Part shown: in pieces, positions 9,539 to 28,611 of the stretch
Layout of the letters: every line of letters starts with the position of its first letter
How positions within the stretch are numbered: the first letter of the stretch is position 1
Sequence record: PZ452579.1
Origin: a phage
Reading direction: 5' to 3' (one strand)
Length of the DNA stretch: 64,000 nt
Notes under the pieces: model-generated
Databases searched by the model: none
Seen by the model: only the letters and a program-made list of their open reading frames with translations
Told to the model about the DNA's origin: nothing
Position numbers and translations under genes: made by a program

Positions 9539-10120
9539 TTATAACAACCCTGTCAAATCATTCCAATGCTTCCGGCATAATGACACATATTTATCGGTAT
9601 CACCAATTTCAATTTGTCCGCCATCTATAATTGGAAGTCCATCTTCCGTGACTCTAGCTACCATTGTGGCTTTTTTACCGCAATGACAGACACCTTTAAG
9701 TTCAACAAGCTTATCGGCGATAGCCATTAATGCTTGAGAACCTTCAAATAGATTACCTTTAAAATCTGTTCGTAGCCCATATGCCATTACCGGCACATTG
9801 TATACGTCAACAATGCGACTAAGTTGATACACCTTTTCAGTAGTTAAGAACTGAGCTTCGTCAACAAATACACAGTGAATATCCTTTTGTGCTGCGGCCC
9901 ATTTATAGAATTCAAAGATATCCATGTCTTTTGTAATTATATTGGCATCCTGACGAATACCAATACGAGAGACTATTTCACCTTTTGAATCACGAGTATC
10001 AATAGCCGGTTTAAGAACTAATACACCCATGCCACGTTCTTTATAGTTATGTGCGGCGGTAAGTAATGAAGCAGACTTACCAGCGTTCATAGCGGCATAG
10101 GTAAAAATTAAACTAGCCAT
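9539..10120 (-). CDS. tk: thymidine kinase
   Basis: 193-aa ORF; P-loop AAMNAGKSASLL, Zn-ribbon Cys pairs (CHCG...CRKH); matches T4 Tk length. Confidence 0.9.
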   Translation of the reverse strand: MASLIFTYAAMNAGKSASLLTAAHNYKERGMGVLVLKPAIDTRDSKGEIVSRIGIRQDANIITKDMDIFEFYKWAAAQKDIHCVFVDEAQFLTTEKVYQLSRIVDVYNVPVMAYGLRTDFKGNLFEGSQALMAIADKLVELKGVCHCGKKATMVARVTEDGLPIIDGGQIEIGDTDKYVSLCRKHWNDLTGLL

Positions 10121-10129
10121 AAGAGCCCC

Positions 10130-10312
10130 TTATAGTGAATTCACATAGTCAATGAGTTCTTGTTCTTTCCTGTCAAATGATTCCATCAATGCTTGATATT
10201 CTTCATCTGTTAAAGGAGCATATTCATCGTACGCATTGGTGGCTGTTTGCTCATCCAATAGGTCATGGATAAGTTCGAACAGTTTAGTTTTCTCTTCTTT
10301 AGTCAATTTCAT
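10130..10312 (-). CDS. hypothetical protein
   Basis: 60-aa acidic ORF. Confidence 0.4.
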   Translation of the reverse strand: MKLTKEEKTKLFELIHDLLDEQTATNAYDEYAPLTDEEYQALMESFDRKEQELIDYVNSL

Positions 10313-10530
10313 TTAGGTTCACCTTCTTTAACGAAATCTGGGTAAGGGTAAAATCCTGAGTAAAACCCTTCACCTTTATGATTGCTACAACCTTTGTTCG
10401 AACAGTAACACCAATAATCAAAATCACAAGCCATTTCGTCATTGCATAAAGCAAAAACTACAGGCCATTCGCATTTTTCGCATTTAGCACCTGTAAGAAT
10501 TTTTGTTTGGCTCATAACAATGGTTCCCAA
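10309..10530 (-). CDS. Cys-rich hypothetical protein (putative metal-binding)
   Basis: 73-aa ORF with about 9 Cys (CEKCEW...C...C..C.C...C). Confidence 0.45.
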   Translation of the reverse strand: MGTIVMSQTKILTGAKCEKCEWPVVFALCNDEMACDFDYWCYCSNKGCSNHKGEGFYSGFYPYPDFVKEGEPK

Positions 10531-11009
10531 TCAACAATCACAATTTCTAGTTTAGTGGAATATGTATCTAAAATCTCTTCGATGACATCCCAATTTCCAC
10601 CACCGATACCTGCACCAATTCTTGGCATATAAATTACAGGCTTTGTTATCTTATTCTTTCCGAATTCATTTAATTCTATTATACAATTCATTAAAGCAGA
10701 GTACTCAAAATTAGGTCCCGGCTCAAACTGTGTATAAAGATTAAAGCAATAAGCTTTATGGGTCTTAAAATATTTTTCATAAACCGAATAAGTCCCGAGT
10801 TTAGACTCGTCTCCGAATTCGGTTTGAAGTTTATCGGCTTCCAGAATTTTTGGATAAGCCTTTGCTAATTGTCCTGCCACACCGGCGCCCATTGTATGAA
10901 AACAATTACACCCATGAGCAATATTATTACCTTTAGAAAACAGGGCGACAATATCGCCCTTGATATAGTTTTTAATCACTTGCTGCAAGTCCTCTAGTAT
11001 AAGAGTCAA
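10512..11009 (-). CDS. macro-domain-like protein (putative ADP-ribose binding/processing)
   Basis: 165-aa ORF; Gly-rich motifs NIAHGCNCFHTMGAGVAGQLA and PRIGAGIGGGNWDVI reminiscent of macro domains. Confidence 0.45.
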   Translation of the reverse strand: MTLILEDLQQVIKNYIKGDIVALFSKGNNIAHGCNCFHTMGAGVAGQLAKAYPKILEADKLQTEFGDESKLGTYSVYEKYFKTHKAYCFNLYTQFEPGPNFEYSALMNCIIELNEFGKNKITKPVIYMPRIGAGIGGGNWDVIEEILDTYSTKLEIVIVDWEPLL

Positions 11010-11319
11010 CTAGACGGTCCACCATAGAATTGCATGCTGCCTTATCTTTAGGTTCCGCCACCGAGCATTCTAATATTTGCCATTTTTTATAGTATCTTTT
11101 AATTAAGGTAGACGCCTTGAACCTACTAGACGCCCCATCTTTTTCTCCGTCTTTATATGCGTATAACAATTTTTGTGAAAAATCTACTTTACACTCTTGA
11201 CTTTTACCACAATAATCAGACGCCGTTCTGTTTGTATACTCCGTTACATCAGTATATGTAGTATTAGCAAGAGCGTTAAATGAAACCAAGCCAACTATTA
11301 AAGCCAACATTTTGGTCAT
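10972..11319 (-). CDS. hypothetical protein with N-terminal signal-peptide-like segment
   Basis: 115-aa ORF; hydrophobic N-terminus MTKMLALIVGLVSFNALA; 4 Cys. Confidence 0.45.
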   Translation of the reverse strand: MTKMLALIVGLVSFNALANTTYTDVTEYTNRTASDYCGKSQECKVDFSQKLLYAYKDGEKDGASSRFKASTLIKRYYKKWQILECSVAEPKDKAACNSMVDRLVDSYTRGLAASD

Positions 11320-11858
11320 TCTTTTATTTCCAGTAGTTTATTTGATTTAAGGTAATTAGCCTTTTCTAGGACTTCAGAAGCATATTTACTTCCAGCACTT
11401 GTCTTCCATCCCGCATTATATGAGGATATAGCTTTTCTTATATCCCCATTATGTATATTTAACCAATAAGAAAATTCGATATAAGCCCATCTGGCTGAAT
11501 TAGACCGCTTAGATAGCATTTTCTTAATTTGGGCATCAGTCATATTATAACCAAGCTGGTTAATTCTTTCCCTCATTGTTGGTAGATAGTTTTGGAACAT
11601 TCCATACGCATGGTGACCTTTCTTATCTTTAAGATTAATACCGGCAGATGATTCCTGCCATAGTATTGCGGCCATTATGTATCCAAGTCCTTTCTTATGC
11701 ATATTTTCATGCGTTTTAAATTTTCCATCCTTAGAAAACTGTTCCCCAAACTGATAAGCATAATTCAAGTTATCGAGTTGGACATTACTAAAAGTATGCT
11801 CGGAGCCATGTGCTGATAACGAAAGAGCAAATAGACCAGCGAGTAGTGCTTTTCTCAT
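11316..11858 (-). CDS. secreted lytic-transglycosylase-like (SLT-like) protein
   Basis: 180-aa ORF; Sec-type signal peptide MRKALLAGLFALSLSAHG; SLT-like motifs LWQESSAG and YGMFQ. Confidence 0.5.
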   Translation of the reverse strand: MRKALLAGLFALSLSAHGSEHTFSNVQLDNLNYAYQFGEQFSKDGKFKTHENMHKKGLGYIMAAILWQESSAGINLKDKKGHHAYGMFQNYLPTMRERINQLGYNMTDAQIKKMLSKRSNSARWAYIEFSYWLNIHNGDIRKAISSYNAGWKTSAGSKYASEVLEKANYLKSNKLLEIKE

Positions 11859-11866
11859 GTTTACCT

Positions 11867-12325
11867 CTAGATTTTAATCACTGCTTTAGAAGCTTTTCCT
11901 GGTAGTCGTTTACTGTTAATAATAGCCATTCTGCATTGAAGAGTCTTCATTTTGAATGCTGGATTTTCGCGACAAACTGTAAGTCCTAACCAAAGATTTC
12001 CATCAGTTATTTCTAAACGGCCTGGGCGATATTCGACACCTTCGACAAAATCTTCATCAACATCTGGACGTGCCGGCATTGATAAAAATTCTGCAACTTC
12101 TTTAACATGATTTTTTACTTTACGAAATAATTCAAAAACGTAATTCTCATCTATTTCTCTCTGGATGGCACGATCTAAGAGATGTTGAGAATACTTGATA
12201 TGAAAGCCTGGTAGTCCAAGAGACTTTGCAGCATCTTTTATACAGGCATTGATTTGACGAAACTCCGTTTCAAAGATTCGACGGAGTTTATTGCGACGGA
12301 TAAAAACTTCCGAATTGATAGTCAT
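11867..12325 (-). CDS. regB: RegB-like endoribonuclease
   Basis: 152-aa ORF; length and position match T4 regB; N-terminus resembles my recollection of T4 RegB. Confidence 0.6.
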   Translation of the reverse strand: MTINSEVFIRRNKLRRIFETEFRQINACIKDAAKSLGLPGFHIKYSQHLLDRAIQREIDENYVFELFRKVKNHVKEVAEFLSMPARPDVDEDFVEGVEYRPGRLEITDGNLWLGLTVCRENPAFKMKTLQCRMAIINSKRLPGKASKAVIKI

Positions 12326-16742: not shown

Positions 16743-17201
16743 TTATAGGAGGGTAGTGAGCACCTTATATAATGATTTGCCCATTACATATTCCCATTGA
16801 GAAGGTTTAATTAAAGCGAATGCATCAAATTCAGGAATCTGTCGTCCGTCTGGGAATGTATGATAGGAATTACAAACACTGTTTCTGAATTGCTCGTGCT
16901 CTACAGGGATGGTATATTGGAACAGATGAATATTCTTATTGTCTGAGTAATGATGTTCACCTAGGTCTTTCAGGAAGGCAGGGTCATATTGTGTAAACCC
17001 AGTTTCTTCTTCGCATTCACGAATAGCGGCTTCAATAGGAGATTCGCCAGGTTCGACACGGCCTTTAGGAATATCCCACCGATGAGCTAATGCACCTTTA
17101 GGACGAGAACCAGTTACACGCCCCATGAATAATTCTTTATCTTCGGTAAGGAAAATAATACCGGCTGATAGTTCTTTCACTTTATTTTTCTTACTCATCA
17201 T
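16743..17201 (-). CDS. nudE: Nudix hydrolase
   Basis: 152-aa ORF; Nudix box GRVEPGESPIEAAIRECEEETGF; adjacent to e as T4 e.1. Confidence 0.85.
   Translation of the reverse strand: MMSKKNKVKELSAGIIFLTEDKELFMGRVTGSRPKGALAHRWDIPKGRVEPGESPIEAAIRECEEETGFTQYDPAFLKDLGEHHYSDNKNIHLFQYTIPVEHEQFRNSVCNSYHTFPDGRQIPEFDAFALIKPSQWEYVMGKSLYKVLTTLL

Positions 17202-27925: not shown

Positions 27926-28611
<686 letters not shown>

Follow-up and report, generated by a model that had tools for sequence, protein, structure and literature searches.

The window (the whole 64,000-nucleotide stretch of phage DNA analyzed here, from record PZ452579.1) is Tequatrovirus sequence. An open reading frame (ORF) on its minus strand, 10512..11009, contains both of the glycine-rich motifs, NIAHGCNCFHTMGAGVAGQLA and PRIGAGIGGGNWDVI, that a first-pass annotation made from the letters alone had read as resembling macro domains and had placed in the tk-regB interval. 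The ORF and its placement stand, and the position can be given more exactly as the segment from vs to a cysteine-rich ORF in the tk.2 position (Table 1).

Table 1 Genes, translation signals and macro-domain elements at the tk.4 locus (positions in the window)
Feature	Position	Strand	Basis or remark
tk	9539..10120		
Cys-rich 68-aa ORF, tk.2 position	10309..10515	-	directly adjoins the tk.4 ortholog
ATGA overlap, tk.4 stop/start of next ORF	10512..10515	-	sequence; laid out alike in the JK45 annotation
tk.4/adfM ortholog CDS, single macro domain, 155 aa	10512..10979	-	TGA stop 10514..10512
Macro loop 2, diphosphate-binding, residues 119-133, PRIGAGIGGGNWDVI	10581..10625	-	alignments
CAG codon, Gln84	10728..10730	-	catalytic-Lys column (joint alignment; HMMER profile alignment to TARG1)
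Macro loop 1, residues 19-39, NIAHGCNCFHTMGAGVAGQLA; H22, N25, GxG motif	10863..10925	-	alignments to BT1257, SCO6735, TARG1, DarG
GTG start codon (probable), overlaps vs TAA stop (GTGATTAA)	10977..10979	-	sequence; homologs and annotated orthologs begin there
GAGGA, Shine-Dalgarno-like, 10 nt upstream of GTG	10990..10994	-	sequence; putative role
vs	10972..11319		upstream neighbor of the tk.4 ortholog
vs.1 ortholog	11316-11858	-	
regB ortholog	11867-12325	-	assigned by comparison with T4

The 5′ end of the ORF as first annotated had to be revised. Position 11009 is simply the first TTG past the upstream stop codon, and we ruled this TTG out as the start in favor of the GTG at 10979, which agrees better with homologs, annotated orthologs and local signals. 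Alignments of homologs from other phages, obtained with tblastn, start at residue 11 of the longer ORF, and the orthologous coding sequence (CDS) is 468 nt long in the annotations of JK45 and T4 alike. Because these observations coincide with the overlap of the GTG and the vs stop and with the spacing from the GAGGA, the real CDS is most likely the GTG-initiated, 155-residue frame listed in Table 1.

The tk.4 ortholog lies within a long leftward array of non-structural genes that are tightly packed and co-directional, its start overlapping the vs stop and its TGA overlapping the next ATG; the ATGA stop/start overlap is an arrangement characteristic of translationally coupled genes. We found no support for a promoter or terminator of its own, since such sites are not above their frequency in shuffled sequence: between 9400 and 12700, we counted 9 sigma-70-like sites (11.7±3.6 in shuffled sequence) and 3 terminator-like sites (2.1±1.6), with no excess of either. 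At 10942-10960 on the minus strand, less than 40 nt into the tk.4 CDS, an 8-bp GC-rich hairpin does precede a T-rich run (AGGGCGATATTGTCGCCCT GTTTTCT). As terminator-like sites are not enriched, this hairpin is probably due to chance.

By sequence and position, the gene is orthologous to T4 tk.4 (adfM). A 2.9-kb stretch around it matches Tequatrovirus genomes from Escherichia and Shigella (among them ST2, JK45 and the O157 typing phages) at ~98% identity, and in their records it is labeled ‘macro domain protein’, ‘macro domain-containing protein’ or ‘phosphatase’; the T4 gene at the equivalent position is tk.4, annotated ‘phosphatase; contains A1pp phosphatase motif’. T4 Tk.4 (NP_049723) and the window protein align without gaps over 155/155 residues at 85% identity, are encoded at the same position beside vs, and share the same invariant residues, including Gln84. 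The gene order, vs followed by tk.4, small ORFs and tk, matches that of T4 and JK45. Compared across the interval, the tk.4 product is the best-conserved protein between the window phage and T4, ahead of vs.1 (82%), tk (81%), regB (78%), vs (67%), rI (53%) and vs.3 (40%). The 24 substitutions that separate it from T4 Tk.4 all spare the columns that are invariant, or almost so, in the family alignment. They include Ala32 in loop 1 (Ser in T4) and Gly127 in loop 2 (Lys in T4), and at both positions it is the window allele that agrees with the consensus of the family. For residue 127, in the diphosphate loop, this means that T4 Tk.4 has a lysine (IGKGNW) found in 5 of 120 homologs, and the window allele the glycine found in 108 of them.

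The surroundings differ from T4 in several small genes, and public annotation of the interval is inconsistent. In T4 and JK45, tk.3 (a 213-nt ORF) separates the tk.2-position ORF from tk.4; the window lacks it, and tblastn found neither tk.3 nor a T4-type tk.1 anywhere in the window. The cysteine-rich 68-aa ORF, which contains MSQTKILTGAKCEKCEW...CYCSNKGC... and may bind zinc, recurs in JK45 at 100% identity and is unmatched in the T4 tk-vs locus. The JK45 record MK962757 gives the name ‘Endoribonuclease RegB’ to the vs.1 ortholog, the true regB ortholog being the next gene; for vs.1, a match to the SLT transglycosylase domain has been reported (PMC1524935). Elsewhere in the window are orthologs of the T4 Nudix hydrolase gene e.1 (16746-17198, minus strand) and of 57B/acb1 (27929-28381, minus strand), each 98% identical to its JK45 counterpart, the latter being an anti-CBASS nuclease named in the HIDEN-SEQ preprint discussed below (bioRxiv 10.1101/2025.11.20.689424). 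Together with tk.4, several nucleotide- or ADP-ribose (ADPr)-directed genes are found within one 20-kb non-structural stretch.

Profile and structure-database matches identify the window protein as a stand-alone macro domain of the ALC1/TARG1-like class. It matches Pfam Macro (PF01661) with 28.1 bits, above the gathering cut-off of 22 bits (E = 2.2e-6, profile positions 2-117 of 118), and PHROG 335 (‘phosphatase’) at 7e-67. Sequence searches of the PDB returned BT1257 (6e-11) and yeast Poa1p (1e-8), along with SCO6735, TARG1 and DarG; with a 63-sequence profile, PDB matches strengthened to between 1e-16 and 1e-12 (TARG1 2e-16). The best Foldseek match is human TARG1/OARD1 (4J5S, E = 3.5e-10), and the protein is predicted to adopt the three-layer alpha/beta/alpha macro fold. 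Its loops MGAGVAG and IGAGIGGG align with those of TARG1, DarG, BT1257 and SCO6735 and are conserved in 120 homologs. On the Pfam, PDB and profile matches, the resemblance first noticed in the glycine-rich motifs is not a chance one; a different fold would have overturned it, and the fold is macro. The nearest structural neighbors are TARG1, DarG, Poa1p and SCO6735/BT1257, not the MacroD, PARG or viral X-domain types. A tblastn search of 50,697 phage records found members of the family in 2,801, most of them large myoviruses of Escherichia, Klebsiella, Salmonella, Pseudomonas, Vibrio and Acinetobacter, which fits the ~41% share of myoviruses reported to carry a macro domain (PMC9503650).

The active site departs from those of TARG1 and DarG at the catalytic-lysine column. 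Where TARG1 (K84), T. aquaticus DarG (K80), PhiKZ gp104 (K78) and M. tuberculosis DarG (in its FPTK motif) have lysine, the window protein and T4 Tk.4 have Gln84, within a common N-L-Y-T-Q. This glutamine is kept in all 120 cluster representatives of the family, in which N80, Y82, G33, A35, D49 and G62 are just as invariant. In loop 1, all or nearly all of the 120 homologs keep H22, G23, N25, C26, G31 and G33, with H22 and N25 aligning with SCO6735 H24 and N27, and N25 also with DarG N22; in loop 2, P119, I121, G122 and G124 are invariant, and Gly126 stands at the position of TARG1 Asp125. The placement of Q84, H22 and N25 in the pocket follows from sequence and profile alignment to solved structures rather than from measured superposition.

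A glutamine at this column (motif NMIGQ) is shared by BT1257 of Bacteroides (2AFC/2FG1) and SCO6735 of Streptomyces coelicolor (PDB 5E3B), where it is Gln85 by residue count in the PDB-alignment sequence. Both are cellular rather than phage proteins and only 22-30% identical to the window protein, and the type they represent combines this glutamine with an H-x-x-N motif; Q84, H22 and N25 of the window protein align with Q85, H24 and N27 of SCO6735. SCO6735 strips thymidine-linked ADPr off DNA and protects cells against DarT; Q85A and Q85E each abolish its activity completely, and the mechanism proposed for it is water-mediated and lysine-independent (PMC9411070). The likeness is not complete, as the phage proteins lack a 6-residue insert in the SCO6735 mobile loop (a gap in the alignment) and also its DNA-positioning Lys34 and Lys89, which are Ala32 and Gly88 in the window protein. 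Human TARG1/OARD1 likewise reverses thymidine-linked ADPr, and where it has a Lys84/Asp125 dyad the window protein has Gln84 and Gly126.

Both the macro-domain identity of tk.4 (2006) and its role against DarTG2 (2025) are already known. That tk.4 orthologs match A1pp/macro was reported in a comparative genomics study (PMC1524935). In November 2025, HIDEN-SEQ, a transposon sequencing approach, was reported for a T4 insertion library on a DarTG2-expressing host: tk.4 was the single significant match, a clean tk.4 knock-out sensitized T4 to DarTG2, and the gene was renamed adfM, for anti-DarT factor macrodomain; the authors infer that AdfM removes ADP-ribose from DNA and write that hydrolysis ‘seems likely’ (bioRxiv 10.1101/2025.11.20.689424). 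These genetics, from a preprint and on phage T4 rather than the window phage, amount essentially to the plating experiment that the first-pass annotation had proposed. Our literature search for ‘tk.4’ returned the 2006 study, a stock comparison and the HIDEN-SEQ preprint, and no biochemical study of Tk.4. The sole point here that goes beyond the literature consulted is that an invariant Gln84 replaces the DarG/TARG1 catalytic lysine in the T-even enzyme.

DarT2 ADP-ribosylates thymidine in TNTC motifs of single-stranded DNA, and the DarG macrodomain reverses the modification (PMC11825919, PMC13309987). Given this chemistry and the need for tk.4 in T4 on DarTG2 hosts, we consider it likely that the window gene encodes an eraser of DarT2 marks which counters DarTG2 by Gln-type hydrolysis of ADPr-DNA, and we infer both that the 85%-identical window allele has the role of T4 Tk.4 and that it acts by hydrolysis. 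DarT2 attaches ADP-ribose to the N3 of thymidine in single-stranded TNTC and thereby stops the phage from replicating its DNA. Held between the two glycine-rich loops of the macrodomain, the ADP-ribose would be released by hydrolysis of the ribose-thymine bond, restoring normal DNA, and as an orphan eraser the macrodomain would clear the marks from replicating phage DNA. The chemistry would probably be lysine-independent and water-mediated, as proposed for SCO6735, and not the lysine mechanism of DarG and TARG1, because Gln84 takes the place of the catalytic lysine and Gly126 that of the TARG1 aspartate.

Protection need not require hydrolysis, since catalytically dead SCO6735 still inhibits DarT through binding; the Q85A mutant does so by interaction to an extent exceeding that of DarG or TARG1 (PMC9411070), and neither ICP1 AdfB nor T-even AdfA uses hydrolysis to counter DarT (PMC11481870; PMC13309987). 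The window protein could thus owe its protective effect chiefly to stoichiometric mimicry of an antitoxin, binding DarT2 and blocking it, which we regard as unlikely. H22, N25, Q84 and both glycine loops are invariant or nearly so in homologs that are just 38-60% identical, and such conservation of the pocket suits ligand binding and catalysis better than a toxin-specific interface. The spread of the family over 2,801 phage records and many host genera also speaks against a mimic of this kind.

The historical ‘A1pp phosphatase’ annotation corresponds to another proposal, that the substrates are small ADP-ribose derivatives (ADP-ribose-1′′-phosphate, O-acetyl-ADP-ribose or ADPr-based immune signals) and not nucleic acid; Poa1p acts on ADP-ribose-1′′-phosphate. 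Poa1p is a close structural neighbor with which the window protein has an H-x-C-N-C motif in common, and the residues mutated in its structures, His23 and Ser30, correspond to the conserved His22 and to Thr29, in an alignment that covers just residues 14-106 (E = 1e-8). However, Poa1p has a serine at the invariant Gln84 position of the alignment, the ‘phosphatase’ name derives from a domain match and no assay, and the sole significant conditional phenotype reported for T4 tk.4 concerns DarTG2, a DNA modifier. We therefore find small substrates quite improbable, even though Iyer and colleagues argued for small ADPr derivatives as the usual targets of phage macro domains (PMC9503650); a side activity on such molecules would be compatible with the DNA role.

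It is very unlikely that the protein acts chiefly on ADP-ribosylated RNA (carrying, for instance, uracil-N3-ADPr) instead of DNA, given that our literature search found no bacterial anti-phage system that writes U-ADPr. SCO6735, TARG1 and DarG each reverse uracil-linked ADPr on single-stranded RNA (PMC13036486), and because they do, such an activity is possible as an extra function. Against RNA as the main substrate, SCO6735 is inactive on 2′-OH RNA ADPr, and on phosphate-linked RNA ADPr one paper is inconsistent (inactive in its results, active in its discussion). A role against an ADP-ribosylating defense, as first suggested for the macro domain, is borne out genetically for T4 tk.4 and DarTG2. 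The other suggestion, that the protein erases the ADP-ribose or RNA-ADPr marks of the phage’s own Alt, ModA and ModB and so tunes or recycles them, is hardly credible, as these enzymes modify arginine and TARG1-class macrodomains are not known to cleave arginine-linked ADPr; in its favor is that T-even phages encode three ADP-ribosyltransferases (PMC9503650).

The window protein is not a DarG copy, because the catalytic lysine is replaced by the invariant Gln84, as in SCO6735. It scores 31.9 bits against the NCBIfam DarG equivalog model (NF048014), far below the cut-off of 250, and 33.2 bits against the PADLOC DarG model, for which PhiKZ gp104 reaches 132.9 bits. With such weak scores and the lysine gone (Lys80 in the T. 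aquaticus structures 5M31/5M3E; M. tuberculosis DarG is 5M3I), classification as a strict DarG homolog was rejected. Unlike DarG, the 155-aa window protein is a single domain without the C-terminal DarT-binding domain, and no darT adjoins the gene, whose neighbors are vs and the cysteine-rich ORF.

PhiKZ gp104 is also a stand-alone phage macrodomain that counters DarTG2, and it has been demonstrated to hydrolyze ADPr off a TNTC substrate (Cell Rep 2026, PMC13309987). It belongs to a different, DarG-like lineage with Lys78 where the window protein has Gln84; BLAST aligned the two proteins only in a 23-residue local match. PhiKZ gp104 further differs in being imported into the phage nucleus. T4 Tk.4 and PhiKZ gp104 were each named ‘AdfM’ in 2025-2026, a clash of nomenclature between different lineages with different catalytic residues, which suggests that the two ‘AdfM’ proteins are mechanistically different.

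A tentative evolutionary reading, which we think quite possible, is that T-even AdfM represents an independent phage recruitment of a lysine-less, Gln-type, ALC1-like macrodomain whose active-site chemistry is nearer to SCO6735/BT1257 than to DarG; the AdfM of PhiKZ-like phages, Lys-type and DarG-derived, would then be a separate family. If true, anti-DarT2 erasers were acquired by phages at least two times, with different chemistry. By analogy with SCO6735 and TARG1, the T-even enzyme might also have a wider substrate range, including uracil-ADPr RNA and acidic-residue protein ADPr, and might counter more than DarTG2.

The Gln-for-Lys site separates T-even AdfM from both DarG and PhiKZ-type AdfM, and the invariant Gln84 can be tested simply by mutation (Q84A). 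Defense by DarT toxins that ADP-ribosylate phage DNA is widespread among bacteria, and phage-borne erasers help to decide host range. The T4-like phage described here carries the known tk.4/adfM gene intact, which predicts plating on DarTG2 hosts.
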